NCBI GenBank assembly: GCA_016840065.1
Contig: JAEOTB010000099.1
Coordinates: forward strand, 1-19,223
Direction of reading: 5' to 3'
Source of the DNA: Candidatus Hermodarchaeota archaeon
GTDB taxonomy: Archaea > Asgardarchaeota > Hermodarchaeia > Hermodarchaeales > Hermodarchaeaceae
DNA: 19,223 nucleotides
The notes under the pieces were generated by a model, which was not told the origin of the DNA, made no database searches, and saw nothing but the letters and a program-made list of their open reading frames with translations. The position numbers were made by a program, and so were the translations under genes. How positions within the stretch are numbered: the first letter of the stretch is position 1; each line of letters opens with the position of its first letter. This document shows positions 3,889 through 16,975 of this stretch, piece after piece.

Positions 3889-4018
3889 ATCAAGATGCTA
3901 GAAGTAGGCTATCCGCTTGGTCTTTCGTCTGACTAGCAGGTGAATCTGGTTGAGACCTTCGCGGTGAGATACTACAAAGAAACTCGTGTATTCCAAGATA
4001 GGAAGAATCGATCCTGTT

Positions 4019-4063
4019 AAAAAAAAAGGGGAGAGGAGAAGAGGCGGTGTTTACCTCTTCCTC
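4019..4063 (-). terminator. Hairpin, pyrimidine tract and T9 terminator
   Basis: Minus strand reads GGAAGAGG-taaacaccg-CCTCTTCT (stem overlaps the end of the gene, TAA in the loop), then cctctcccc and T9. Confidence 0.6.
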
Positions 4064-5616
4064 TTGCATAGTACGAATTGGTGGAGCAGAAGCAACAGCA
4101 CCGCGACGACGATTATGAGGACCCAGTGGAAAATCATTGGGAGATTGGCTGTGAAGAAAGCTGCCCAGGCAGGTGCTTCGATGGTTACCGAGAAGTCCCC
4201 AGATATCACGTTCCCAACCGAGTCGGTCACGGTGACACGGAGCCCATAGACACCAAAAGGTAGCACCACAGCAATGGAGACAACACCATCGCTGCTAACG
4301 GCGAATCCGGTGTTGTTGAGCGCCCAGGCCACGCTGAAATAGGAACTCACGTTCAGGTCATAGGCAAGGCCGATACCGTAGGGCACTGTCTGGTCGGCGG
4401 GTGCCGGGTCCCAGGCCAGGGGATATTCGGTCTTTACCAGCCAGCCGTTATAATCGTCGTATGTGGGATCAGCTGCCTCGCCTGCGGCTACGATGTCGCC
4501 GTTGCCGCTTTCCACTAGGGCATAGAATTCCTCGTTGGGAGGTCCGCCGTAGCTGCTGTTCCAGAGCATGTTACCGCTAGAGTCTGTGCGGATAAGCAAG
4601 CCGTTGTCTCTGTCCCCTATCTCATTATAGCCGGCAAGGACGAAGCCGCCTTTACTGTACTCGATTAAATCCCTGGCGCCAACGTAGTCAGGTTCATCGT
4701 AGGTCATGTTCCATAAGAGGTTGCCGCTGACGTCGGTGCGGATGAGCCATGCGGCTGTGTCAACAGCAGCGTAGCTGTAAGTCATGCCTGCGATGGCATA
4801 TCCACCATCACTGCACTCGACAATCGAATTACCCCGATCCATACCTGCGCCACCATAGGTCTGGTTCCAGAGGTGGTTGCCATCCTCGTCGGTGCGGATA
4901 AGCAGCGCATCACTAGTGTAGCCAGTGATGGCATATCCGCCTCCGGAGACCTCCACCAGGTCAGCCCCTTGCTCATTGCCTGTACCGCCGTATGTTTTAT
5001 TCCATTCCATGTACCCAAGGTAGTCTGTGTGCACCAGGTACACATCGTCATTGCCGCCACCATAACTCGTGGTAGTCGCAGCGATGGTGTACCCACCATC
5101 AGAACACGCTACAACCTGAAGTGGGTCCGTTTCGAAGTATGCGCCACCGTAGGTGCGGTTCCATACAATGTTTCCGCTGGCGTCGGTGCGGATGAGCCAT
5201 AGGTCAGCAAGGCCAGCGCCGTAGCTATAGGTCCATCCTGCGAGGATGTAGCCGTCGCTCAATGCTATTACATCGTATAGGCGGTCAGTGCCAGTGCCGC
5301 CGTAGGTCTTGTTCCAGAGGTGGTTACCGTTTGCGTCGACGCGTACGAAGTATCCGTCTTTGCGGGTGGTCTCGATTGATCCAACCATGGCAAAGCCGCC
5401 GTCGCTGCACAGCGCCATACCTTGGAACCATTGTTCGCTGGTGTTGCCGTATGTCTTGCTCCAGGTTTCTGGTGGTCCAACCGTCCGGGTCACCATTGCT
5501 GGTGTGAGCCTGTCATTGGATGCCAAAGGCAAGCTGGACTGGGTTGTATCGATTAGGGGTGCGTTACAGAGAACCACCAAAAGGATTAGAGAAGATAGAA
5601 TGAGTTTCTTATTCAT
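4051..5616 (-). CDS. Membrane-anchored cell-surface protein: 7-repeat beta-propeller, Ig-like domain and C-terminal TM anchor
   Basis: Signal peptide MNKKLILSSLILLVVLC (ATG 5616 after GTGGGGG). Seven ~50-aa repeats W(N/S)xTYGG...SDGGY.IAG...WLIRTD.xGN. Ig-like segment WDPAPADQTVPYG..LAYDLN...LRVTVTDSVGN...F.VTI. TM helix and basic tail CKRKR. Confidence 0.85.
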   Translation of the reverse strand: MNKKLILSSLILLVVLCNAPLIDTTQSSLPLASNDRLTPAMVTRTVGPPETWSKTYGNTSEQWFQGMALCSDGGFAMVGSIETTRKDGYFVRVDANGNHLWNKTYGGTGTDRLYDVIALSDGYILAGWTYSYGAGLADLWLIRTDASGNIVWNRTYGGAYFETDPLQVVACSDGGYTIAATTTSYGGGNDDVYLVHTDYLGYMEWNKTYGGTGNEQGADLVEVSGGGYAITGYTSDALLIRTDEDGNHLWNQTYGGAGMDRGNSIVECSDGGYAIAGMTYSYAAVDTAAWLIRTDVSGNLLWNMTYDEPDYVGARDLIEYSKGGFVLAGYNEIGDRDNGLLIRTDSSGNMLWNSSYGGPPNEEFYALVESGNGDIVAAGEAADPTYDDYNGWLVKTEYPLAWDPAPADQTVPYGIGLAYDLNVSSYFSVAWALNNTGFAVSSDGVVSIAVVLPFGVYGLRVTVTDSVGNVISGDFSVTIEAPAWAAFFTANLPMIFHWVLIIVVAVLLLLLHQFVLCKRKR

Positions 5617-5735
5617 ATTAGCCCCCACTGAATATTCTTCGCATATATCGGCGTGAGGGCTTTTAAGCTGTATACACTAGAGCAACGGGTCTATCGCGTA
5701 TCCTAGGACTTCTTCTCCGTCCTTGGAGTAGCTTA

Positions 5736-6401: not shown

Positions 6402-9344
6402 TTATGGTGTTCGGATGGTCAGGTAGAAGTATTCGGTTTCTACGATTTCACCGTCTACTACTATTCGTAGTTCGAGGATGAAGGTCGCAAGATATACTCC
6501 GGCGTCTAGGCTGGTGGCGTTCAGTGTGATTGAACCGCCTGTGATGTCTAGGTAGTAGAGCTCGGTTTCACTGATGTTGTAGATGAACTGGCCTGAATCA
6601 ACGTGTGGTGTGATGTTTAGGTCGTGGAACCATACGTCGATGTCGTCGGTGTGCATGGCGAGTTGGATAGTCGCATTCACTGGTGATGCTGTAGAGTTCC
6701 CGTTCATAGCCACAAAGCTTAGGACAGCTTCTTCTCCGATGTCGACGTCGAAGGGATCAAGGCCTGCTTCGATGAACTCCACACCGCTCACTGTAGCATT
6801 GTAGCCGAAGAAGAAACTGGCGTATGCTTCAGCGGCTGTGCCTGCATAGGCTACTTGGGTGATATCCTCTGCGTCAACCAGACCCACAAAGGTCAGGGTT
6901 TCGACGAGGGAGTCGCCTGTGTGAGATTCAGCGTAGACGGGGAAGAGGTAGACTAGCCTTCCGCTTAGAGGTACGAGGAGCCGGTTACCAATCCGGTAGG
7001 GCTCGAGAAGGACCAGGTCAGAGCGTGCCTGCTGCTCGAAGCTCTCGATGGCTGCATCAACACCGAACAAGGGGCTAATGGATGTCTGGGTGACCGGGTC
7101 AACGGAGCCAGCGCGGGCAAAGATGGTTCGCCCCACCTCCGGGCCATTCACGAACAAATAGAACCCGGCGAGTTTTTGCGCTTCATGCCGTATGTACCTG
7201 GCAGCCTGGTAGCCGACCCATTTCAGTTGGCCGTCTTCTGGGAAGAGAACATAGTGTACGTCGGGTTGTGAGTGAGGTTTCTCAAAGAAGTCTGCTTGAC
7301 TCCTCCAAACCCAGGGGTCAGTGACGTGGTAGTAGAAGTCGACTGCGAGTTGGGCGTCGATGAGGTCTTCGGGGTATCTGAGTTGATCCTCGAGCCATGT
7401 GGGAGCATCATCCCAATCATACCATTCCTCATACATTGTCTCGATGAAGAAGCCTGCTGGATCTGCGTTGGGGTTGCGAACCCAGGTGATCTCGCCGTCA
7501 GCGCAGTTTACGATGGCGAAGCCAAGGAGTCTCAAGTAATCTGTTTGAGCATATTGGAGCTGAAGGTCGAAGGCGCTGTATATTGGTACACAATAGTAGG
7601 CTTCTTGACTGAGCCTGTCGAAGACAAGGTAGGGGTCGTAATCGGTGTACATGTAGGGTAGGAGAATGGTTTGCACTCGTTCAACGATATTGCGGTGCAT
7701 TAGGACGTTGGCTGTTGGGTCCGGGAAGGAGAACCAAGCGAAGCTTAGGTCGCCGATGGACCAGGCTAGTTTCTTCAGTGCTAGTTCGGCTCCTGAAAGG
7801 ATGTAGTCGGGTTCGCCCTCCCAGCTGTAAGCGCCGGTTTCTGGGGCGATACTGGTGTCAACGACTACAAACTCGTCGAAGCCGTCTTCGTAGGCATCTG
7901 GTGCTGCCTCCCCGTAGTAGATCGGGAAGTTTGCGTTTACGCCAAAGACGCTCTGGAACTGGCTTGGCGTGAGGAATTCACCGGTCTGGCTGCTGGCATC
8001 CAGTGCCGTCGCGCCCTCTGCGTGTGTGTAGAGAAGGTATTTGCTATGGAAGTCGTCCTGAGTGGGTGGTGAAAGCGAGTATGGTGCCATCCAGTATTCG
8101 CGACCCATCGAGTAAACGATATCCGAATCCGCCAGCGCCATCCAATTGGCTATAGTTTGACTTCGCATTTTGTTCCGACTGGCCGTGAAGTCCCAGAGTC
8201 TTGCATGCCCTAACATGTCACCGTCTGAGACGCCTGTATCATTGATCAGGGCTTTGTATGGAACCTCTTCCACGTCAAGCCCGCCTGCCCAGTTACTGAA
8301 ATGGAGTTCCTTAGTCATCAATGGGTCCCAATGACCCTCTTTCCACATGGCCCCTTGTAGGGGTCCAGATACTAGGTATCCAGTGTAGAGGCCTGGACCG
8401 ATTATCAGCACAGCGGTTGCTATTCCAAGAATCGCACCTAATTTGGGATTGAGGCGGGGTACATTGCCTGCCCGTCCATATTTTCCAAAGACGGTCAATC
8501 CGAAGAAGATGACGGTTAGGCCGCAGAAGAAGATGAACATGATTAGAAGCCAGAGGACGTAGAACTGTGTTCCGAGGTCGACTTCTAGGTAGGGAACATT
8601 GAGGAGTCCCCAGAAGAGCCCCAGAACTACTAGGAAGAAGATGGAGGCGAGAAGCCTGACTGATGGGCGTCGGGTAGCTCGACCAATTCTGGCAATGTAG
8701 TGGACAAGGTCAAGAGCAACGCGTACACCTATGACTGCGAGGAGCAGGGTCATGAAGATCATGAAGATGGTGTACTCGACTTCAATTGTCGCCACTAGAC
8801 CAGCTACTGTTGCCGTGGATGCGCCTGGAGTGAATATCAGTGTGATGGCTTGTTGGATGCTGCCCCAATTACCCACACCCGAAGCGGCGGCCTGGGTGAG
8901 GAGGGATAGAAGCCGCATCTGGTCAGTGAAGATGAAGGTGACAACAAGGTAGGTGATGCCGAACACAGCTAGCTTGTAACCAGCCACAAGGAGCTTGTGT
9001 GGTTTACGAGTATCTCCTCGGTTTTGTCCGAACCACAAGAGGTTGAGTACCTTCGATTCCCAGGGAAGTCCGGCAAGTGTGACGATGGCTGCGACGGGTA
9101 TTCCAACTCCGAAGAGGAGCCCGTTGATGGTGAAGGTCGCCCACCAGGAAACACCGGCTTTGTTGATGTACATTACATCAAGCATCTTCCAGTCTAGGAG
9201 GAGGTTCTGTACGGCGAATATGCCGCCTACGACGATGGCTGCTATCACTGCGATGGCGATTGCTACAACGAAGATTTTCCGTGGCATTGAGATTCTTAGG
9301 GTAGGTCTTTCTGATGAAGTTAGATTAGAAATAGTCTTTTCCAC
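6402..9344 (-). CDS. UPF0182 (COG1615) family membrane protein with an extra C-terminal Ig-like domain
   Basis: N-terminal multi-TM region followed by family motifs ARLWD, YTHAEG, IYYGE, RNIVERV..ILPY...DYDPYLV and QLRYPEDL...YYHVTDP. The start may instead be ATG 9287 (MPRKIF). Confidence 0.85.
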   Translation of the reverse strand: MEKTISNLTSSERPTLRISMPRKIFVVAIAIAVIAAIVVGGIFAVQNLLLDWKMLDVMYINKAGVSWWATFTINGLLFGVGIPVAAIVTLAGLPWESKVLNLLWFGQNRGDTRKPHKLLVAGYKLAVFGITYLVVTFIFTDQMRLLSLLTQAAASGVGNWGSIQQAITLIFTPGASTATVAGLVATIEVEYTIFMIFMTLLLAVIGVRVALDLVHYIARIGRATRRPSVRLLASIFFLVVLGLFWGLLNVPYLEVDLGTQFYVLWLLIMFIFFCGLTVIFFGLTVFGKYGRAGNVPRLNPKLGAILGIATAVLIIGPGLYTGYLVSGPLQGAMWKEGHWDPLMTKELHFSNWAGGLDVEEVPYKALINDTGVSDGDMLGHARLWDFTASRNKMRSQTIANWMALADSDIVYSMGREYWMAPYSLSPPTQDDFHSKYLLYTHAEGATALDASSQTGEFLTPSQFQSVFGVNANFPIYYGEAAPDAYEDGFDEFVVVDTSIAPETGAYSWEGEPDYILSGAELALKKLAWSIGDLSFAWFSFPDPTANVLMHRNIVERVQTILLPYMYTDYDPYLVFDRLSQEAYYCVPIYSAFDLQLQYAQTDYLRLLGFAIVNCADGEITWVRNPNADPAGFFIETMYEEWYDWDDAPTWLEDQLRYPEDLIDAQLAVDFYYHVTDPWVWRSQADFFEKPHSQPDVHYVLFPEDGQLKWVGYQAARYIRHEAQKLAGFYLFVNGPEVGRTIFARAGSVDPVTQTSISPLFGVDAAIESFEQQARSDLVLLEPYRIGNRLLVPLSGRLVYLFPVYAESHTGDSLVETLTFVGLVDAEDITQVAYAGTAAEAYASFFFGYNATVSGVEFIEAGLDPFDVDIGEEAVLSFVAMNGNSTASPVNATIQLAMHTDDIDVWFHDLNITPHVDSGQFIYNISETELYYLDITGGSITLNATSLDAGVYLATFILELRIVVDGEIVETEYFYLTIRTP

Positions 9345-9436
9345 CTTTTTGATAGTTAAGCTAATAGAGGGGCGGGTTTCCGCTTAAGTCTTTTGAGGAG
9401 GTGCCAGGAACTCGAAGTAAATCGTGTCCTTCAACT

Positions 9437-10606
9437 TCATCCTGATTGAGCGGCCAGTTGTGCCATTGCCTTGGCCTTGTTGCTGATATTTCGATAGATT
9501 AGCCCTGAAATGATAAGGAGTACAATCCCAACCGCTAGGATGTGGAACCAGTGCAAATTATACAGATATGTGTCGATTCCGTATAGGAGATAGGCGAGAG
9601 ATAACACAAGTGTGGTAAACATGTGGTTAAATATCGTCGAGGCGTTCGCGGGAATCATTCTTAGAGGGTGGTCAAAGTTCTTCAGGGTGAATCGACTAGC
9701 CATGACGGTTAAGGGAAAGCTTGAGAGGGCGATGAAAGTATAATATCTCATCGAGGGGAGGACGAGAGTTGTGAAGAGGGGAAGGACAAAGGGGAGGAGG
9801 GTCGCAACGAGGATGGTTATGTGAGCCGCAGCGAGGATGAGTACAAAGCCCTTCGCCGCTCTTTTCCTCCCCAATCGAACTACTAGGGTCCGTTTGCCTG
9901 ATTCCTTGTCAGCCTTGTAGTCGGGGAAACAGTTGATGTAGAGTACTCCCGTGATTAGTAGTGCAACGGGGATTGATGCGATGAGGGGCTCCCACATAAG
10001 AGGATTCCATAGGATGGTAACCCAGAGGAAAGGGTCCCACATGAATGGATCCGCCAGAAAGGGTTGGACCTGGACGTAGAACGAACCGAAGACTAGTAGG
10101 GTCCCGAAGCAGAGCCCGATTACGAATTCTCCGATACCCCTGCTGGCCAGCTTAAACGGAGGAGCAGTGTAGAAGAAGGCCGAGAAGATTCCAATTATTC
10201 CTAGGAATAGCACCATGAATCCTCGGATCAAGAAGAGGTAGAGCCCGATTACGGTTGCACTTGTCAGGAAGAGTAATGCGCCAGCTAGTACTGCGCGGGG
10301 GGATAGGTATCCGAGTTGGATTGTCCGGCTGCCACCACTGAAGGGTCGGATGAACTCTACATTGAGGTCATCAGTTGCCCCAGATTTTGAGTCAAAGTAG
10401 TCGTTGGCTACGTTCGCCCCTAAGTGGGCAAGGACTCCTCCAGCTAGGGTGAGCAGGAAGATTTCCCAGAGAAACATACCCGTGAGTGCCCAAGCCATGA
10501 CGTTTCCTAGCAGAATCGGTGCGACGGAGGCTGTCAAGAAGGGGAGACGAAGCTCCATCAACCATGCGCCAATCTTGCCTGGAGGTTGGTCAGTATCTGG
10601 AGTCAT
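9437..10606 (-). CDS. menA: 1,4-dihydroxy-2-naphthoate polyprenyltransferase (MenA/UBIAD1-type UbiA family)
   Basis: Motifs LRLPFLTASVAPILLG, NVANDYFD, YTAPPFKLASRGIGE and INCFPDYKADKESGKRTLVVRLG. ATG after AGGTG. Confidence 0.88.
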   Translation of the reverse strand: MTPDTDQPPGKIGAWLMELRLPFLTASVAPILLGNVMAWALTGMFLWEIFLLTLAGGVLAHLGANVANDYFDSKSGATDDLNVEFIRPFSGGSRTIQLGYLSPRAVLAGALLFLTSATVIGLYLFLIRGFMVLFLGIIGIFSAFFYTAPPFKLASRGIGEFVIGLCFGTLLVFGSFYVQVQPFLADPFMWDPFLWVTILWNPLMWEPLIASIPVALLITGVLYINCFPDYKADKESGKRTLVVRLGRKRAAKGFVLILAAAHITILVATLLPFVLPLFTTLVLPSMRYYTFIALSSFPLTVMASRFTLKNFDHPLRMIPANASTIFNHMFTTLVLSLAYLLYGIDTYLYNLHWFHILAVGIVLLIISGLIYRNISNKAKAMAQLAAQSG

Positions 10607-10621
10607 TCCGTTTACACCTGT

Positions 10622-11641
10622 TTAGTAGTCACGAACAAGGGTGAAGTCTGCTACTTGCTCGAGTAATGCTTGTGTTTGAAAGCCAAAGTCCTGGAGCGCT
10701 TGTTTTGCTTGAGTAACATAGCTCTGAGCGAGCTTGTATGTGAACTGGATAGCATCATACTTCTCAATGATTTGGAGTACGACTTCATAATCGCCTTTCG
10801 TGAGTGCTGCAAGGCACTTGTGGCGTTCTTTGTTGGTGCAGACCTCCAATGCGTGTACGAGAGGGTAATTGCCCCGCTTGAGTCGAAGATCCGATAGCGT
10901 TGACTTATTAGCAACTTGTTGTGATGCTTCGACATCTAGAATATCATCTCGTAATTGGAAAGCGAAACCAAGGCAACCGCCATATTCTACAAGAGCACGC
11001 TTTTGGGCTTCTGTAGCATTGCCTGTAATAGCTCCGATTTTTGCTGCCTCCTCCATGAATGCAGCTGTTTTCCGTTCTATCATGTAGAGGTAGTGCTCTT
11101 TGGTGAAGGTATCGTCATGGTCGGGGCTCATGAACAAGTCTGCTGCTTCGCCTTCAGCCATCCGTACACCTCCAGTGCCCATTGCTGCTATCATCTCAGG
11201 TGTGCCCTCTTCCCCAATGATTCGAAAGGCTTGAGCGATTAGCAGATCACCTGCTAGTAATGCAATATCTCTTCCAAACTTTTCATGAACGGTTCTTACT
11301 CCTCGGCGGATTTCATCACAATCAATGATGTCATCATGGATTAAACTGGCAGTTTGCAGCAGTTCCGCAGCTACAGTGATTGGAAGTACTCTTGCTATGT
11401 CGCCGCCAACTGCTTCGCAGCATAAAAGCGTGATTAGGGACCGAAGACGTTTTCCTCCAGCCTTGATGAGATGGTGAGCAGCTTCATACAGTATCGCTGG
11501 TTCTCCTCCATCTGTACTCAAGTATTGCTGAATTGTTTGGTCTATGAGAAGAATCCGTTTCTGGAATTCTTGACTCTGCTTTGATAAAGAGACTGAACTT
11601 TTCTCTGGAAGAGAGGGTTTACCCACCATTGTGTTTGGCAT
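10622..11641 (-). CDS. trans-polyprenyl diphosphate synthase, probably medium/long-chain (quinone side chain)
   Basis: GGKRLR, FARM TASLIHDDIIDCDEIRRG, KTAA and SARM FQLRDDILD. ATG 11641 follows GGTGA and is preferred over TTG 11662. 15-bp gap to menA. Confidence 0.9.
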   Translation of the reverse strand: MPNTMVGKPSLPEKSSVSLSKQSQEFQKRILLIDQTIQQYLSTDGGEPAILYEAAHHLIKAGGKRLRSLITLLCCEAVGGDIARVLPITVAAELLQTASLIHDDIIDCDEIRRGVRTVHEKFGRDIALLAGDLLIAQAFRIIGEEGTPEMIAAMGTGGVRMAEGEAADLFMSPDHDDTFTKEHYLYMIERKTAAFMEEAAKIGAITGNATEAQKRALVEYGGCLGFAFQLRDDILDVEASQQVANKSTLSDLRLKRGNYPLVHALEVCTNKERHKCLAALTKGDYEVVLQIIEKYDAIQFTYKLAQSYVTQAKQALQDFGFQTQALLEQVADFTLVRDY

Positions 11642-11660
11642 TGTATCACCGGGAGTATTC

Positions 11661-11686
11661 AATCAAATCGCAGGATATCTGATGTG
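11661..11686. promoter_or_regulatory. Operator candidate copy 1, AATCAAA-N10-TCTGATGTG
   Basis: Same 7-nt and 9-nt arms and spacing as 11785..11810. The core ATCAAA-N10-TCTGAT is a near-palindrome. Lies between the TATA-like element (~11697-11708) and ATG 11641. Confidence 0.6.
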
Positions 11687-11784
11687 TATGTTTGATATTA
11701 TATTTATGAGTGTAATTCAGGGTTAGATGAGCGGTGTTTTGTATTACGAACACGGGATTTTTATCCAAGTACTAGAACAACTCG

Positions 11785-11810
11785 AATCAAAGTTAGCAAA
11801 CTCTGATGTG
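11785..11810. promoter_or_regulatory. Operator candidate copy 2, AATCAAA-N10-TCTGATGTG
   Basis: Second copy, between the TATA-like ATTTTTAT (11757-11764) and tusA ATG 11817. Confidence 0.6.
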
Positions 11811-11816
11811 AAGTAA

Positions 11817-12074
11817 ATGGCAGACGTTGAACCCACAATTCAAGTAGACGCCCGTGATATGGCCTGCCCTGGTCCTATTACTGAGGTGGCCAGGGCATAC
11901 CGAAAGGCTAAGAACGGTGATATAATCGAGGTACTCGCCACTGACCCTGGATTCACTTCAGATGTAAGGGCTTGGGCTTCAGCCACTACAAACGAGCTCG
12001 TAATCGTTGAGGAAAAGGACGGGGTAATCAGAGCTCTGTTGAAGATCACTGCGAAAAGACAGCAGGGAAGATAG
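11817..12074 (+). CDS. tusA: TusA/SirA-family sulfur carrier protein
   Basis: VDARDMACPGPI (CPxP motif), then EVLATDPGFTSDVRAW. 85 aa. Confidence 0.9.
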   Translation: MADVEPTIQVDARDMACPGPITEVARAYRKAKNGDIIEVLATDPGFTSDVRAWASATTNELVIVEEKDGVIRALLKITAKRQQGR

Positions 12075-13274
12075 ATGAAACGGATCTTGATTCTGGGCGG
12101 TGGAACAGCAGGTACCATGACCGCGAACATACTTGCCAAGAGTCTTGGTCGAGAAATCAAGGACGGACAAGTTGAAATCACACTATTGGACAAGGATGGT
12201 CTCCACATCTTTCAGCCAAACAATCTTTATGTGGGCTTCAAAGGGATGAAGTCTGAGAAAGTGGTAAAGGATGAGAGTACTCTCCTCCACAAGCGCGTGA
12301 AGTTCTTTGTTGACCCTGCTGTAAAGATTGACCTAGATGAAAGAATTGTGACCACCAGGAAAGGACTAACTCGTAAATATGACCACCTGCTGATTTCCAC
12401 AGGAGCGAGCGTTACCCCCGATGAAATTCCTGGTTTTGCTAAGGCAAACCTTGATTTTCACTCAACGCCAGGGATGGCTAAGAGGATTTGGGAGAAGATC
12501 AACCAGATTAAACGTGGTAAGATTGTTGTTGGTGTCAGTGCCATTCCCCACAAATGTCCTCCCTCTCCGGTTGAAGCAGCATTACTTGTTGAGCAATTCC
12601 TTAAGAAGAAAGGCTTGAAGGATAAAGTCGAGATTCATTTCGTCACACCCCTTCCTAGACCATATCCCTCCGAAACTATCAATGATGTAGTCTCAAAGCT
12701 GTTTGAAGACCGAGGAATCATCACTCATCCCTTCTTCAATGTTGATAGTGTTGACCCTCAGAAACAGGTTGTCTATTCGATGGAGGGAACTGAAATCAGT
12801 TATGATGGCTTGTTTCTTGTTCCCTACCACAAAGCACCCCAGGCGATTATCGATTCTGGCATTGGCGATTCAGATGGCTGGATTCCCACAGACAAACACA
12901 CACTACTGGTTAAAGGTCGAGATGATGCCTACGCCCTTGGTGATGTAGCTGACCTCCCCACTTCAAAGTCGGGTGTCACTGCCCACTTGGAAGCTGTTGT
13001 AACGGCCAAAAACGTCGTAGCAGACATCACTGGTACTGGTGAGAAGTGCCGATTCACAGGCCGCACCCACTGCCCCATGGATGTCGCTTATGGTAAGGCA
13101 CTTTTTGTTATCACAACATATGAGAAACCAACCAGGAAGGTTAAGCCCACCCGAATCAATCTAATGATGAAGAAGATGTTTAGCATGATGTACTGGACAA
13201 CGCTGAAAGGCTCTCTTGAATTCATTTTTGACAGATTCTTTGGTGAAGATGCTAGAGACTGCTCGAAGCAGTAG
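12075..13274 (+). CDS. sqr: Sulfide:quinone oxidoreductase-like FAD-dependent disulfide oxidoreductase (type III-like)
   Basis: ILILGGGTAG Rossmann motif, YDHLLISTG, KCPPSPVE, YALGDVADLPTSKSG, distal THCP cysteine and an amphipathic C-terminal helix (MMKKMFSMMYW). ATG directly follows the tusA TAG. Confidence 0.75.
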   Translation: MKRILILGGGTAGTMTANILAKSLGREIKDGQVEITLLDKDGLHIFQPNNLYVGFKGMKSEKVVKDESTLLHKRVKFFVDPAVKIDLDERIVTTRKGLTRKYDHLLISTGASVTPDEIPGFAKANLDFHSTPGMAKRIWEKINQIKRGKIVVGVSAIPHKCPPSPVEAALLVEQFLKKKGLKDKVEIHFVTPLPRPYPSETINDVVSKLFEDRGIITHPFFNVDSVDPQKQVVYSMEGTEISYDGLFLVPYHKAPQAIIDSGIGDSDGWIPTDKHTLLVKGRDDAYALGDVADLPTSKSGVTAHLEAVVTAKNVVADITGTGEKCRFTGRTHCPMDVAYGKALFVITTYEKPTRKVKPTRINLMMKKMFSMMYWTTLKGSLEFIFDRFFGEDARDCSKQ

Positions 13275-13341
13275 ACCATCTACGTCTCGAAGCTGGATGT
13301 AATTGCTAGAAAGGGAATAAGGGTTGACAAACAGTACGGTG

Positions 13342-13611
13342 CTAGCCATATTGGTATGCTACACCAAATGATCCCCGTGGGTAGTTCCATTTGATGGCAT
13401 CTTTTTCGCAAATAATCTTACAGGTGCCACATTCGATGCAATCCTCATAATTGAAGACAAGTTTCCCGGCTTCTATCTTGAAGCATCCTGCGGGGCATCC
13501 TGCTAGACAGGGTTGATGGTCACATTTCTGACACCTATCTGTGTCTACTATTATGTGAGGTTCTTTGTCGAAATTAAATACGAGTCTACCAAGTTTTTCT
13601 TCGAGTTTCAT
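13342..13611 (-). CDS. fixX: FixX-type 4Fe-4S ferredoxin
   Basis: HIIVD..CQKC...PCLAGCPAGCF, YEDCIECGTCKIIC and the C-terminal signature WNYPRGSFGVAYQYG. Confidence 0.9.
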   Translation of the reverse strand: MKLEEKLGRLVFNFDKEPHIIVDTDRCQKCDHQPCLAGCPAGCFKIEAGKLVFNYEDCIECGTCKIICEKDAIKWNYPRGSFGVAYQYG

Positions 13612-13612
13612 T

Positions 13613-14899
13613 TTACAATCCTCTCACAAGTTTTACTGCATCAATGAGGAGACCAGGAATCGACGCCTCTCCCAGAACCATCTTTATCAGAAGGGTTAGA
13701 AGTTTGGGTCGGGGAACTCCTCTTGATGAAAACAAGGCTGTAACAAGGTTGTTTACGAGGGCGGGGTAGGTATTGTGTAATCGCGGACTTCCCAGGAATG
13801 CGGGTGCGTGTTGGAAAGTTTTCAGATCTTTCAGAACAAAGCTGTCCTTGAGGATTTGTTCATATCGTTTGAGGCTGTGTTTGGAGAAGTCACCAATTAC
13901 TTTAGCTCGCTCCACAGTTTGGGCAGCGGCAACACCGCTTGCAATGGCAAAGTTCATGCCTTCGAGGGCATAACCAACATTTAGTGTTAAACCCGCAGCG
14001 TCTCCAGTTACAAGGAGACCATCAGTATAGAGCTTTGTAACCGCCCCATAGCCCCCTTCAGGAACTAGATGTGCAGAATATTCGAGAAGGTCTCCATCAC
14101 GGAGGAATCTACTAACGCTCGGATATGATTTGAAGTGCTCAATGAGGTCAGGGGCTTTGACGGCTGCTTTGGAGAAAGCTGAAAGGTGAACGACGACTCC
14201 CAGTGAGAGGCTGTCAAGATTCGTATAAAGGAAGCCGCCTCCCGGAAATCCCTTGGTGCAGCCGATAAAAGAGTAGGCTGCTCCTTCTTCTCCGGATAGG
14301 TTGAATCGTTCCTCGATGACCTCCCGTGGGAGGTTGATTACTTCCTTGATTCCTAGTCCCATCTCGTGGGGGTTGTGGTCCTTTCTCAGTTTGGCTTCTT
14401 TGGCCAGGAGTGAATTAACTCCGTCGGCGGCGATGACTACATCGCTGAAGACTTCATCCCCTCCCGCGCAGACACCTGCTATCTTGTTGTCCTTCCAGAG
14501 AAGACCATCCACTCGGATTCCTGGAGCTAGCATGGCTCCTGCTTCTTCTGCTTGTTTGGCGAACCATTGGTCGAATTTGTATCTGTTAACAGAGAATCCA
14601 TCATGGGGAGCGGTTTTTGATGTTGTTCGTGTATGGTCCACTGTGACAGAGGATTTCCCCGAGAGAAATGTTAAGCAACGTGAAGTGATTCGCCTCTCAA
14701 GGGGTGCCTGCTCCCAGAAGTTGGGGATAAGGTCATGGAGAGCCTGACCGAACAGAATCCCCCCAGACACATTCTTCTCACCGGGGGTTCTACCTCTCTC
14801 AACTAGCATCACCTGCAGCCCAGACTTAGCCAAGGAATATGCTGCGGCACATCCTGCAGGACCTGCACCGACTACTATAGCGTCAAATCTATCGGTCAT
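13613..14899 (-). CDS. fixC: FixC-family FAD oxidoreductase (ETF:quinone oxidoreductase subunit)
   Basis: FDAIVVGAGPAG, ERG..PGEKNVSGG, APLERRIT, GGGFLYTN, EYSAHLVPEGG and GDAAG. ATG 14899 after GGAGG. 1-bp gap to fixX. Confidence 0.9.
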   Translation of the reverse strand: MTDRFDAIVVGAGPAGCAAAYSLAKSGLQVMLVERGRTPGEKNVSGGILFGQALHDLIPNFWEQAPLERRITSRCLTFLSGKSSVTVDHTRTTSKTAPHDGFSVNRYKFDQWFAKQAEEAGAMLAPGIRVDGLLWKDNKIAGVCAGGDEVFSDVVIAADGVNSLLAKEAKLRKDHNPHEMGLGIKEVINLPREVIEERFNLSGEEGAAYSFIGCTKGFPGGGFLYTNLDSLSLGVVVHLSAFSKAAVKAPDLIEHFKSYPSVSRFLRDGDLLEYSAHLVPEGGYGAVTKLYTDGLLVTGDAAGLTLNVGYALEGMNFAIASGVAAAQTVERAKVIGDFSKHSLKRYEQILKDSFVLKDLKTFQHAPAFLGSPRLHNTYPALVNNLVTALFSSRGVPRPKLLTLLIKMVLGEASIPGLLIDAVKLVRGL

Positions 14900-14934
14900 A
14901 AACCTCCACTCACTTGTCGTCCTCGAACTTGATG

Positions 14935-14953
14935 TTTTATTTATGTTCTTTTG
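14935..14953 (-). promoter_or_regulatory. BRE/TATA-like promoter of fixCX
   Basis: Minus strand CAAAAGAA-CATAAATAAAA about 36-54 nt upstream of ATG 14899. Confidence 0.45.
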
Positions 14954-15040
14954 ACCAACCACCGTCGAGAAGGAACACCTGAACGCAACAACTGCTGAGG
15001 ATCACTATCAGATGATTGGGTCAATTCCATGAGAGCGTTA

Positions 15041-15511
15041 CTAATCAAAACAGTCATGCCAATCCTTTGTATGGACATATTGGGCAAATTCTACAAGTAT
15101 CCTTTCCTGCCCCCTAGTTTCGATTGAGCAGGGACGATGTTGACGAATCACACGGAGTGCTTTCTCCCCATCCATCCTTTCGCTATGGATGATGTAGGCA
15201 GCAAGGAAAGTGCCGGTTCTGCCGCATCCTAAGTAGCAGTGAACGCAGACGGGTAGGCCCTTGTCGCGGCTGTCATCGACGAGTTCTATGAACCTCTGTA
15301 GCTGTTCTAGTGTTGGTGTTCCGTAGGGGGGGACATAGTAGTGGTGGTATGTGAGCCCGACGCTTGTGACGGTGGCTTCGTCGAGGGATTCGTCCATGGC
15401 TGTAACGAGTATGCGGATGCCCTTGTCGAATAGCCACTTGAGGTCTCTTCGTCCCCGGGGAAGGTTCGTTCCTGCTAATACCTTGGGAATTAGGTAACTG
15501 AAATTATCCAC
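15041..15511 (-). CDS. DUSP23-like dual-specificity phosphatase paralog A (general-acid Asp replaced by Pro)
   Basis: NFSYLIPKVLAG...P, P-loop VHCYLGCGRTG, C-terminal RQHRPCSIETRGQ. GTG after GGAGGG. Confidence 0.88.
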   Translation of the reverse strand: MDNFSYLIPKVLAGTNLPRGRRDLKWLFDKGIRILVTAMDESLDEATVTSVGLTYHHYYVPPYGTPTLEQLQRFIELVDDSRDKGLPVCVHCYLGCGRTGTFLAAYIIHSERMDGEKALRVIRQHRPCSIETRGQERILVEFAQYVHTKDWHDCFD

Positions 15512-15559
15512 TGTGGAGCCCTCCGATGAGTCGTTTCTTTTCCTTGTGTGATTCTGTGG

Positions 15560-16000: not shown

Positions 16001-16501
16001 CTAGCTTCGTTTGGAGTGTGGCTTTCTCCGTCGAAGGCTTCTCGCGTATTCGTGGAGGAGGGCTCGCTGCTCTTTGTTGGGTTCACGCCAGCAGATGACC
16101 CGGTTGATGTGGCGTATCTTCCCACGCATAAGAGCGTACGCATCGTCGGCACTGAGGTTCTCGCTGTGGATGAGGTAGGCGGTGAGGAAGGTTCCAGCAC
16201 GTCCACATCCTGCTTTGCAGTGCACCAGAACTGACCACCCCTTGGCACGGTACTTGTCGACGAGCTTGACAAACCAGCGTAACTGATCGAGGGTGGGAGC
16301 TGTGTGATCGTCAACCGGGCAGTGATGAAGCTTCACCCCCTTGGGTTCAAGAAACTCTATTGCTCCTTCACTGAGGGGGTGCTCCGTGAGTGTTACCACC
16401 ACGCGGATTCCTTCCTTAATGATTCGTTTGTAGTGACCGCGTCGCTTAGGGATATTCGACCCTGCAAGGACCCCTTCTATTTGCCATCGAAAGTTCCTCA
16501 T
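16001..16501 (-). CDS. DUSP23-like dual-specificity phosphatase paralog B (CX5R-Ala P-loop)
   Basis: NFRWQIEGVLAG, PVDDHTAPT, VHCKAGCGRAG. Very basic. ATG is 3 nt after the stop of paralog C. Confidence 0.88.
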   Translation of the reverse strand: MRNFRWQIEGVLAGSNIPKRRGHYKRIIKEGIRVVVTLTEHPLSEGAIEFLEPKGVKLHHCPVDDHTAPTLDQLRWFVKLVDKYRAKGWSVLVHCKAGCGRAGTFLTAYLIHSENLSADDAYALMRGKIRHINRVICWREPNKEQRALLHEYARSLRRRKPHSKRS

Positions 16502-16504
16502 AGC

Positions 16505-16975
16505 TCACACCTTGGATCCTGCGAATTCACGTAATCTTTCTATTTGGGATTCGTTGGGCTCGCTGGAGGTCTGATAACCGGGTCGAAAGAGGCTACGAAC
16601 TTTAACCACGGCATCATCAACATCCATCCCCTTGTATATCAGGTAAGAAGCAAGGAATGTGCCAGTACGACCAACCCCCGCCCAGCAATGGACAGCGACG
16701 GGCCGCTTCTCTCCTTCATCACATAATCGTACGATTCTGATGAAATTCTCCAGCTGGGTTAATGTCGGTGGGTGAAAGTCCTCGACGGGAAAGTGGAAGT
16801 ATATCATTCCCAGTTTTTCCTCAAGGTACCTTACATCTTCTTTGCTTAGAGGATCTTCTGTCAAAGATACTAGGACTCGTATACCCTTACTGTGAAGGAA
16901 GTCGAGGTCCTTCAACCCCCTAGGGAGATTGGTTCCTGCAAGAAGCCCTGGTATTTGCCAACGGAAATTATCCAA
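16505..16975 (-). CDS. DUSP23-like dual-specificity phosphatase paralog C (canonical motifs)
   Basis: NFRWQIPGLLAG, PVEDFHPPT, VHCWAGVGRTG. TTG after GAGGT. Confidence 0.9.
   Translation of the reverse strand: MDNFRWQIPGLLAGTNLPRGLKDLDFLHSKGIRVLVSLTEDPLSKEDVRYLEEKLGMIYFHFPVEDFHPPTLTQLENFIRIVRLCDEGEKRPVAVHCWAGVGRTGTFLASYLIYKGMDVDDAVVKVRSLFRPGYQTSSEPNESQIERLREFAGSKV

Follow-up and report, generated by a model that had tools for sequence, protein, structure and literature searches.

The contig JAEOTB010000099.1 of a Candidatus Hermodarchaeota archaeon was analyzed over its whole length of 19,223 bases (hereafter the window; contig C100 of genome bin G000). It carries a block of six genes, for a MenA-like prenyltransferase, a prenyl-diphosphate synthase, the sulfur carrier TusA, a flavoprotein resembling sulfide:quinone oxidoreductase (SQR), FixX and FixC. 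From the protein families, the motifs and the conserved neighborhoods, the block would be, with moderate confidence, a compact quinone island, native to its lineage, reduced and relocated, in which the assembly of the quinone tail stands next to electron entry from sulfide and from flavoproteins. The grouping of the genes exceeds chance, since the block is a discrete insertion or deletion relative to genomes of the same genus and sub-sets of it recur in other Asgard families.

A preliminary description of this DNA had named six adjacent genes in three transcription units, and all six open reading frames (ORFs) are in place. Searches with Pfam and NCBIfam profiles, scored against their curated cut-offs, agreed with every family proposed (MenA, prenyl synthase, TusA, SQR, FixX and FixC), in several cases with scores below cut-off. 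The features are listed below; PT denotes the synthase of the block, a second prenyl-diphosphate synthase.

9437-10606, minus strand: MenA-like protein, UbiA family, 389 aa; the best NCBIfam models are all MenA
10622-11662, minus strand: PT, polyprenyl_synt family, 346 aa; PF00348 205 bits; likely start ATG at 11641 or 11629
11663-11816: divergent spacer between PT and tusA, 154 bases, AT-rich, with apparent TATA-like stretches
11817-12074, plus strand: TusA sulfur-carrier protein, 85 aa; PF01206 73 bits
12075-13274, plus strand: SQR-like flavoprotein, 399 aa; Pyr_redox_2, best model type III SQR
13342-13611, minus strand: FixX, ferredoxin-like, 89 aa, 8 Cys; best NCBIfam match FixX
13613-14962, minus strand: FixC, ORF of 449 aa opening at GTG 14962; likely start ATG 14899
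~9400-15085: the whole block, gained or lost together, with approximate breakpoints relative to same-genus genomes

The genes menA and PT are 15 bases apart, tusA and sqr abut, and a single base separates fixC from fixX. The MenA-like, SQR-like, FixC and FixX proteins are each encoded by one copy in the G000 genome.

Host and Compared Genomes

The bin of the window comprises 2.59 Mb in 131 contigs (83.9% complete, 5.08% contamination), and no 16S rRNA was found in it. The suspicion that the host may be an Asgard archaeon is borne out, because genome G096, which corresponds to Ca. Hermodarchaeum yapensis, is of the same GTDB family. Genomes G022, G033 and G079 belong to the genus of the window genome; each is ~80% complete, which makes gene absence there likely, short of proof. 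The sister genus is represented by G096, G110 and G067. The phyletic sample consists of 151 Asgard genomes, 72 of them of high quality; these are mutually related, and their counts are read as a pattern over about seven families with no statistical test. Neighborhood counts refer to the 80 best loci of the MenA-like family (L-numbers denote such loci).

The Block as a Unit of Gain and Loss

The whole window was searched as DNA against the three same-genus genomes and two genomes of the sister genus. In G033 (contig C143), a match to window positions 6645-9396, within a gene for a UPF0182 protein, is followed 117 bases on by a match to 15081-15510, which is the first phosphatase gene beyond the block. 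The same junction is found in G022 (contig C209), with matches to 7072-9399 and then to 15087-15523. The DNA in between (~9400-15085) has no match anywhere in G022, G033 and G079, and protein searches with the MenA-like, SQR-like and FixC sequences retrieved nothing from these three genomes. The two junctions are direct evidence that the block is a discrete presence/absence difference within the genus.

Contamination or misbinning of the contig was rejected. Both flanks of the block match the same-genus genomes at 79-84% nucleotide identity, and therefore the contig belongs to the host lineage. A mobile element was likewise discarded as an explanation: the block ends in neither direct nor inverted repeats, and no gene for an integrase or transposase was found within it or next to it.

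Origin from a Larger Island

In the sister genus and other Hermodarchaeial relatives, the genes of the block are part of a larger island, laid out as nuo-dsrE-tusA-sqr-GGR-(doxD)-PT-menA ... fixCX, where GGR is the geranylgeranyl-reductase paralogue of the module. For instance, a single contig of G110 carries larB-larC-larE, a fucose-isomerase-like gene, menA-like, PT, GGR, SQR, TusA, DsrE and a nuo operon, and further along FixX-FixC followed by genes of 124, 428, 299 and 183 aa. Locus L078 begins with nuoB-nuoA, continues with dsrE-tusA-sqr-GGR-doxD-PT-menA, and ends with the fucose-isomerase-like gene, larE, larC and larB. In G096, a bacterioruberin-type carotenoid cluster and a photolyase gene occupy the middle of the island, in place of the nuo operon.

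The ancestral site, between the fucose-isomerase-like gene and the 124-aa gene, is empty in G000, G079 and G033. On contig C122 of G000, the lar and isomerase-like genes are joined directly to genes of 124, 430, 299 and 184 aa. This direct join indicates that the genus as a whole no longer has the island (~25 kb in G110) at its ancestral site. The block keeps the sister-genus order and strand of menA-like, PT, FixX and FixC; GGR and the whole middle are lost and tusA-sqr is inverted. With the ancestral site vacant and the block colinear to the island but smaller, it is therefore a reduced and relocated copy. The genes larB, larC and larE (nickel-pincer cofactor synthesis) and the isomerase-like gene are themselves conserved beside the ancestral site in Hermod-type genomes (L078:7724-12838), and the isomerase-like gene is inverted in the genus of the window (G000 C122:34088-38411).

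The preliminary description had left it to the relatives whether the arrangement is conserved. Sub-sets of it do recur in them, whereas the exact six-gene order is unique to G000.

Distant horizontal transfer was also rejected. In a tree of 81 family members, the window protein is placed in a Hermod-type clade of nine (SH-aLRT 95), which is nested in an Asgard clade of 44 (SH-aLRT 96), and the block is as similar to the sister genus (66-68% nucleotide identity) as is the flanking UPF0182 gene (67-68%). By these comparisons, the block is native to the Hermodarchaeia lineage. Its history would be either relocation in the ancestor of the genus followed by loss in the other species, or re-acquisition from an unsampled close relative. 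A short stretch beside the block (14990-15040), whose translation ends in TAEDHYQMIGSIP and a stop codon, weakly resembles the C-terminus of the gene that follows UPF0182 in G079 (E 0.003 for nucleotides, 0.02 translated). It could be a remnant from block insertion, which would favor insertion in G000.

The MenA-like Prenyltransferase and Its Synthase

The MenA-like protein contains a UbiA-family membrane prenyltransferase domain (PF01040, 101.7 bits against a cut-off of 34.2). Its best NCBIfam model is NF004751 (144 bits, cut-off 264), and TIGR00751 scores 91 against 102; NCBI annotates many of its relatives as MenA. Both Asp-rich motifs are present in the translation, as NDYFDSKSGATDD and DYKADKESGKRTL. 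They are of the types NDxxDxxxD and DxxxD...GK.TL (ANDYFDSKSGATDD and PDYKADKESGKRTLVVRLG), and their columns are invariant in an alignment of 11 sequences. Identity to the Asgard-wide family is 45-56%. The sole match in the PDB is UBIAD1, at 27 bits; since this match is weak, no special relationship between the Asgard proteins and the eukaryotic UBIAD1 is indicated.

Two insertions of the MenA-like protein (residues ~183-206 and ~283-294) are absent from most relatives. Trp, Pro and Phe abound in the first (FLADPFMWDPFLWVTILWNPLMWEP), at whose position a Loki-labelled homologue also carries an insertion.

PT has DDxxD motifs at residues 110 and 239. The first is preceded by Ala at position -5 and Ser at -4 (TASLIH followed by DDIID), and both residues are invariant across all 11 MenA-linked orthologues, which come from four differently labelled groups. 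The only other synthase of G000 (C2:6971-7984, 32% identical to PT) reads NYSLIL before its DD, with Tyr at -5, which is the signature of short-chain archaeal synthases. According to the chain-length rule reportedly established by Ohnuma and colleagues, small residues at -5 and -4 before the first motif lead to a longer product. By this rule, the Ala at -5 suggests that the PT product is probably longer than C20, that is, medium- or long-chain, and the earlier long-chain call fits this residue, with Tyr in the other synthase. Profile scores do not discriminate the chain length of PT: its best NCBIfam models are short-chain (IdsA and GGPP synthase, below cut-off), it is below every long-chain equivalog cut-off (IspB, HepT and solanesyl synthase), and the paralogue C2:6971-7984 scores about the same.

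TusA and the SQR-like Flavoprotein

TusA exceeds the PF01206 cut-off of 28.6 bits with the score given above and keeps the Cys-Pro active site in DARDMACPGP. It is 67-73% identical to the SQR-adjacent TusA of the Hermodarchaeial relatives compared. The only other TusA of G000 sits with IscS, NifU and DsrE, in an Fe-S context; as a part of a sulfur-oxidation relay this second copy was rejected, because it adjoins IscS and NifU.

The SQR-like protein matches PF07992 (66 bits), and its best model is the type III SQR model NF049943 (301 bits against a cut-off of 525, the model being an exception model for the selenoprotein subtype). In the PDB, human SQOR matches best (E 3e-26). The segment PHKCPPSPVE aligns with the first catalytic Cys of SQOR and GRTHCPMDV with the second. 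The FAD motif is N-terminal (GGGTAG at residues 8-13, of the form GxGxxG), no second GxGxxG dinucleotide motif exists in the sequence, and the C-terminal stretch appears amphipathic. With both cysteines kept and a second dinucleotide motif missing, nothing points to the use of NAD(P)H.

A different role for this pair was considered, in which TusA and the SQR-like protein would be biosynthetic and introduce sulfur into the head group, giving a quinone of the methionaquinone or caldariellaquinone type. We regard this as very improbable. It would explain the absent ring pathway; tusA-sqr-GGR-PT-menA, in some cases with dsrE, is co-directional in the sister genus and in L078, and enzymes for sulfur-bearing quinones have not been described, methionaquinone being listed among the quinones without known enzymes (PMC13386864). 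Against it, the two catalytic cysteines match those of human SQOR in the alignment, type III SQR is the best model, family f13, which has a true MenB, also has the SQR-like protein, and in the window tusA-sqr is inverted relative to PT-menA. Moreover, sulfurtransferase genes beside sqr are usual for the hand-off of persulfide, as in the staphylococcal cst operon, which counts against a biosynthetic role.

FixX, FixC and the Electron Transfer Flavoproteins

FixX scores 70.5 bits with the FixX model NF011993 (cut-off 166) and 27.9 bits with Fer4_ETF_QO, and an 8-Cys pattern is present in its translation. FixC scores 414 bits with PRK10015 (cut-off 466), 397 with the FixC model PRK10157 (cut-off 610), 26.6 with ETFQO_UQ-bd (cut-off 27.7) and just 117 with GG-red-SF. 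With the FixC of the sister genus it shares 59-68% identity. The relatives align from about residue 20-25 and residue 22 is Met; on this ground, the true start is probably the ATG at 14899 (M22), which matches the end coordinate of the preliminary description.

The genes for the electron transfer flavoprotein (ETF) are found twice in G000, as etfBA pairs on short contigs (C66:50-2065 and C68:1246-3257) that are ~95% identical at the protein level. Such similarity may stem from a recent duplication or from a mixture of strains in the bin. One of the pairs adjoins methylmalonyl-CoA mutase genes. At its N-terminus, EtfA has a two-cluster ferredoxin domain; the models that fit it best are ETFs of the anaerobe type.

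FixCX could alternatively be the reductase of the quinone prenyl chain, replacing GGR and with FixX as its ferredoxin, instead of an ETF:quinone oxidoreductase. The module GGR has no orthologue in G000 (the best match is 32-37% identical), FixC lies within the GGR superfamily, with the 117 bits mentioned, and the GGR of Methanosarcina needs an adjacently encoded ferredoxin (PMC10821996). Even so, a reductase function seems improbable: FixC scores far higher on the FixC models than on GG-red-SF, FixX matches the 4Fe-4S domain of ETF-QO, the sister genus has both the module GGR and the 59-68% identical FixCX, and in the Asgard genome G102 (family f21) the orthologue points the same way as etfB and etfA.

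Quinone Context of the MenA-like Family

A word-indexed protein search yielded 1,177 family members at E ≤ 1e-5 among 8,000 scored candidates, and 537 loci in the genome collection. The archaeal members come from Thor-, Hermod-, Odin-, Loki- and Sif-labelled genomes, from Methanomassiliicoccales and other Thermoplasmatota, Bathyarchaeia and Methanofastidiosia, and from metagenome-assembled genomes (MAGs) of Archaeoglobus. The bacterial ones belong to Anaerolineae and other Chloroflexota, Gemmatimonadota, Aminicenantes, KSB1, TA06 and Clostridia.

PT adjoins the MenA-like gene in 43 of the 80 best loci and the module GGR does so in 37; in 20 loci, one or more Nuo subunits are encoded within 8 kb. 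Thorarchaeota typically show the order ccm genes, GGR, PT, menA-like, a CCG/FeS protein, a FAD-linked oxidase and nuo. In two bacteria, the MenA-like gene is found inside the nuo operon itself (nuoA-B-C-D-H, menA-like, nuoI-J), namely in the closed Gemmatimonadota chromosome CP070758 (L147:8001-8894) and in an unclassified bacterial MAG of the same clade (L155:8001-8909). A complex I operon is an unusual site for a gene of cofactor biosynthesis. In G102, menA-like, fixC, fixX, etfB and etfA follow each other on one strand, and in family f6 fixCX is 7 kb from PT-menA. Unbiased clustering of the neighbors at the 80 loci returned PT, GGR, nuo, CCG/FeS, the FAD oxidase and ccm genes; no candidate for a ring-forming enzyme was among them.

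The distribution across the Asgard sample is in line with these neighborhoods. The MenA-like gene is present in 54 of the 151 genomes (29 of the 72 of high quality). The SQR-like protein (27 genomes) and FixC (38 genomes) are confined to families positive for it or to f13, the one family with MenB above cut-off, and neither occurs in the 64 genomes of the remaining families. From the combined neighborhoods with nuo, SQR, FixCX and PT, a membrane quinone is the best reading of the MenA-like product. The earlier proposal that the locus groups quinone assembly with two quinone-directed enzymes thus gains support from families, motifs and neighborhoods alike.

Two further kinds of neighbor were recorded. 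In L139 (8001-9500) and five other loci of Anaerolineae or Chloroflexota, the MenA-like gene is followed by a thioesterase of the 4HBT family, which has the fold of the dihydroxynaphthoate (DHNA)-CoA thioesterases; in the single genome of this kind that was tested, both MenB and MqnA/D are missing. In the sister genus and family f6 (L074:7396-12935 and L071:7164-13059), PT-menA is accompanied by a bacterioruberin-type carotenoid set (phytoene synthase, two CrtI-type desaturases, a LyeJ-like UbiA protein and CruF), which was not found in the G000 genome.

Missing Ring Pathway and Quinol Re-oxidation

Several observations weigh against the reading of the block as a quinone island. To begin with, the MenA-like protein is below every curated MenA equivalog cut-off. 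The best scores in G000 are 159 bits for MenB (cut-off 343) and 61 bits for MenD (cut-off 244), both from generic relatives, and MqnA/D are absent; UbiE/MenG is represented by a generic relative as well (72 bits against 158), in a genome that is 83.9% complete. MenB-like proteins or MqnA/D are found in none of the 54 MenA-like-positive Asgard genomes. Among all 151, MenB-like proteins at E ≤ 1e-60 are restricted to families f9, f13 and f18, and MqnA/D occur in one genome, with a marginal match. Neither MenB nor MqnA/D was above cut-off in six further genomes that carry the family (the closed Thorarchaeota, Methanobacteriota-labelled and Gemmatimonadota chromosomes, Ca. H. yapensis, and the Archaeoglobus and Anaerolineales MAGs). 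In a Bathyarchaeia genome, where the search covered MqnA/D alone, these were not found.

The searches for MenB and MqnA/D worked in control genomes. Since the markers are missing in the carriers, the MenA-like clade is an orphan with respect to the men and futalosine ring pathways. Archaeoglobus was tried as an anchor to a known menaquinone producer and dropped as uninformative, the tested MAG being without MqnA/D; A. fulgidus is reported to have them (PMC5244752).

The re-oxidation of the quinol is another difficulty. Of four families searched in G000, cytochrome bd, NrfD, NarI/HdrE/DsrM and Ni_hydr_CYTB, no member was found (heme-copper oxidases, complex-III-type cytochrome b and the anchors of fumarate reductase were not searched). 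Of a Nuo-like complex, G000 encodes subunits A-D and H-M, scattered over contigs C75, C15 and C4, and a group-4-hydrogenase-like set is on C99. Orthologues 90-92% identical to the NuoH of C15 are kept by same-genus species that do not have the block, and the Nuo-like complex may therefore be independent of this quinone. Beside the module, the sister genus has a nuo operon of another paralogous type (39% identical), which is absent from G000. In addition, etfAB is on other contigs than fixCX.

The preliminary description had called the module self-contained. This cannot be maintained, with no ring pathway, no MenG/UbiE, no quinol oxidase of the four families searched and etfAB elsewhere; its remark that the window has no ring-synthesis genes extends to the genome, where MenB and MenD stay below cut-off and MqnA/D are absent.

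The module of the relatives also adjoins carotenoid genes, which allows a non-respiratory, isoprenoid reading. The adjacency would then be historical, a leftover of deletions in a mixed isoprenoid and redox region; the MenA-like protein and PT would make a non-respiratory prenylated aromatic compound, such as a membrane antioxidant or a regulator allied to the carotenoid genes, and SQR and FixCX would be independent of it. This is consistent with the modules of the sister genus and f6, which sit among phytoene synthase, CrtI-type, LyeJ-like and CruF genes, with the variable middle of the island (nuo in G110, crt in G096), with the failure to find a ring pathway or a quinol oxidase of the families searched in G000, and with the three same-genus species that live without the block. 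Nevertheless, G000 has no phytoene synthase or CrtI and has kept menA-PT together with SQR and FixCX. The MenA-like gene is inside nuo operons in two bacteria and directly 5′ of nuo in many Thorarchaeota, it heads the fixCX-etfBA operon of G102, and the SQR-like protein and FixC are confined to families with MenA-like or MenB. A merely historical adjacency is thus considered rather unlikely, and the quinone island is retained as the preferred explanation.

Comparison with Known Systems

Group B Streptococcus reportedly possesses menA and a prenyl-diphosphate synthase without menFDHCEB and salvages DHNA. The block resembles it in having a MenA-type enzyme and a dedicated prenyl synthase with no ring synthesis, and the product would similarly be of the demethylmenaquinone type and dependent on neighbors. 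On the other hand, the pattern here extends over entire archaeal and bacterial clades (54 of 54 Asgard genomes and three closed genomes), SQR, FixCX, GGR and nuo form a cluster with the genes, and salvage is hypothetical. Canonical MenA and UBIAD1 share with the window protein the UbiA fold, both Asp-rich motifs and, as best models, MenA throughout; unlike canonical MenA, it is below the equivalog cut-offs and found in genomes without men or mqn genes.

The enzyme of Caldivirga maquilingensis is an archaeal type III SQR. The protein of the window agrees with such enzymes in its best model, its FAD motif and both redox cysteines. It differs from them in a score under the NCBIfam cut-off, the model being that of the selenoprotein subtype, and in being part of an operon-like gene string, which includes tusA in the window and also GGR-PT-menA in relatives. 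Sulfolobales have a DsrE/TusA sulfur relay and the thiosulfate:quinone oxidoreductase DoxD. Similarly, the island of the relatives holds dsrE-tusA-sqr and a DoxD/DoxX gene, whereas the block of the window has TusA only, with no DsrE or DoxD.

As in FixABCX of Azotobacter vinelandii and in archaeal etfAB-fixCX clusters (e.g., Saci_0290-0293; PMC10821996), a FixC-like flavoprotein is paired with FixX and EtfAB is encoded in the genome; G102 has an orthologous fixCX-etfBA operon. In G000, by contrast, fixCX is apart from etfAB and beside the genes for quinone assembly and SQR, EtfA has the N-terminal ferredoxin domain, and FixC is just under its curated cut-off.

Quinone-based respiration had been thought notable if the host was an Asgard archaeon. 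The host is one, but the surprise is diminished by published reports of type III SQR in Heimdallarchaeia (PMC11193907), of FixC as an ETF:quinone oxidoreductase in a cultured Hodarchaeales strain (bioRxiv 10.1101/2025.02.26.640444), and of menaquinone as the presumed Nuo acceptor in Sif- and Jordarchaeia (PMC9723677). Nuo and ETF have been reported in Hermodarchaeota (PMC8163825), and patchy men genes of Asgard archaea are listed without explanation (PMC9723677 and its supplement). No published description was found of PT-menA linked with tusA-sqr, fixCX and nuo, of the orphan status of the MenA-like clade, or of the within-genus difference in the island.

Proposed Electron Route and Its Significance

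In the proposed route, PT would make a polyprenyl diphosphate longer than C20, and the MenA-like enzyme would attach this chain to a naphthoquinol-type head group, either taken up from neighboring microbes or built along a pathway not yet described. A membrane quinone would result, probably without methylation, since MenG/UbiE was not found. The SQR-like protein would oxidize sulfide at its two-cysteine site, load the quinone and pass the sulfane sulfur to TusA. FixCX would relay electrons to the quinone from the ferredoxin-domain EtfAB encoded elsewhere, and these may derive from the oxidation of acyl-CoA or from a bifurcation of the FixABCX type, in which NADH would reduce both quinone and ferredoxin. 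For the re-oxidation of the quinol, the dispersed Nuo-like complex would be the sole candidate found.

Models of Asgard energy metabolism include Nuo-like complexes, SQR and ETF:quinone oxidoreductases, and the source of the quinone is usually left aside. Here, the putative prenylation part of quinone synthesis is linked on the chromosome to these enzymes across the Asgard phylum, and the part that forms the ring was missing from all genomes tested. This narrows the alternatives to ring precursors from partner bacteria, which fits a syntrophic lifestyle, or to an unknown pathway or carrier. More tentatively, and in our view doubtful, the clade may mark an unrecognized membrane electron carrier, with a head group made by a third route or with a non-standard naphthoquinone. 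If this were true, many anaerobes of sediments for which current models assume no quinone, among them relatives of the eukaryotic ancestor, would run quinone-type electron transport. Since the presence of the island varies within one genus, its sister species lend themselves to a natural comparison.

Flanking Genes

On one side, the block is flanked by the UPF0182 membrane protein, a HEAT-repeat protein and unannotated ORFs, and on the other by three tandem genes for dual-specificity phosphatases and a GNAT/SCP2 acetyltransferase. The phosphatase genes (15041-15511, 16001-16501 and 16505-16975) follow the block and vary in number among the species of the genus; G022, for instance, has an additional paralogue at the junction. 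Elsewhere in the window, the region 4000-5400, which falls in an ORF of 525 aa without a Pfam match (4051-5628), matches many separate contigs of G033 and G067 at 63-91% identity and is therefore a multi-copy gene family or a repeat.

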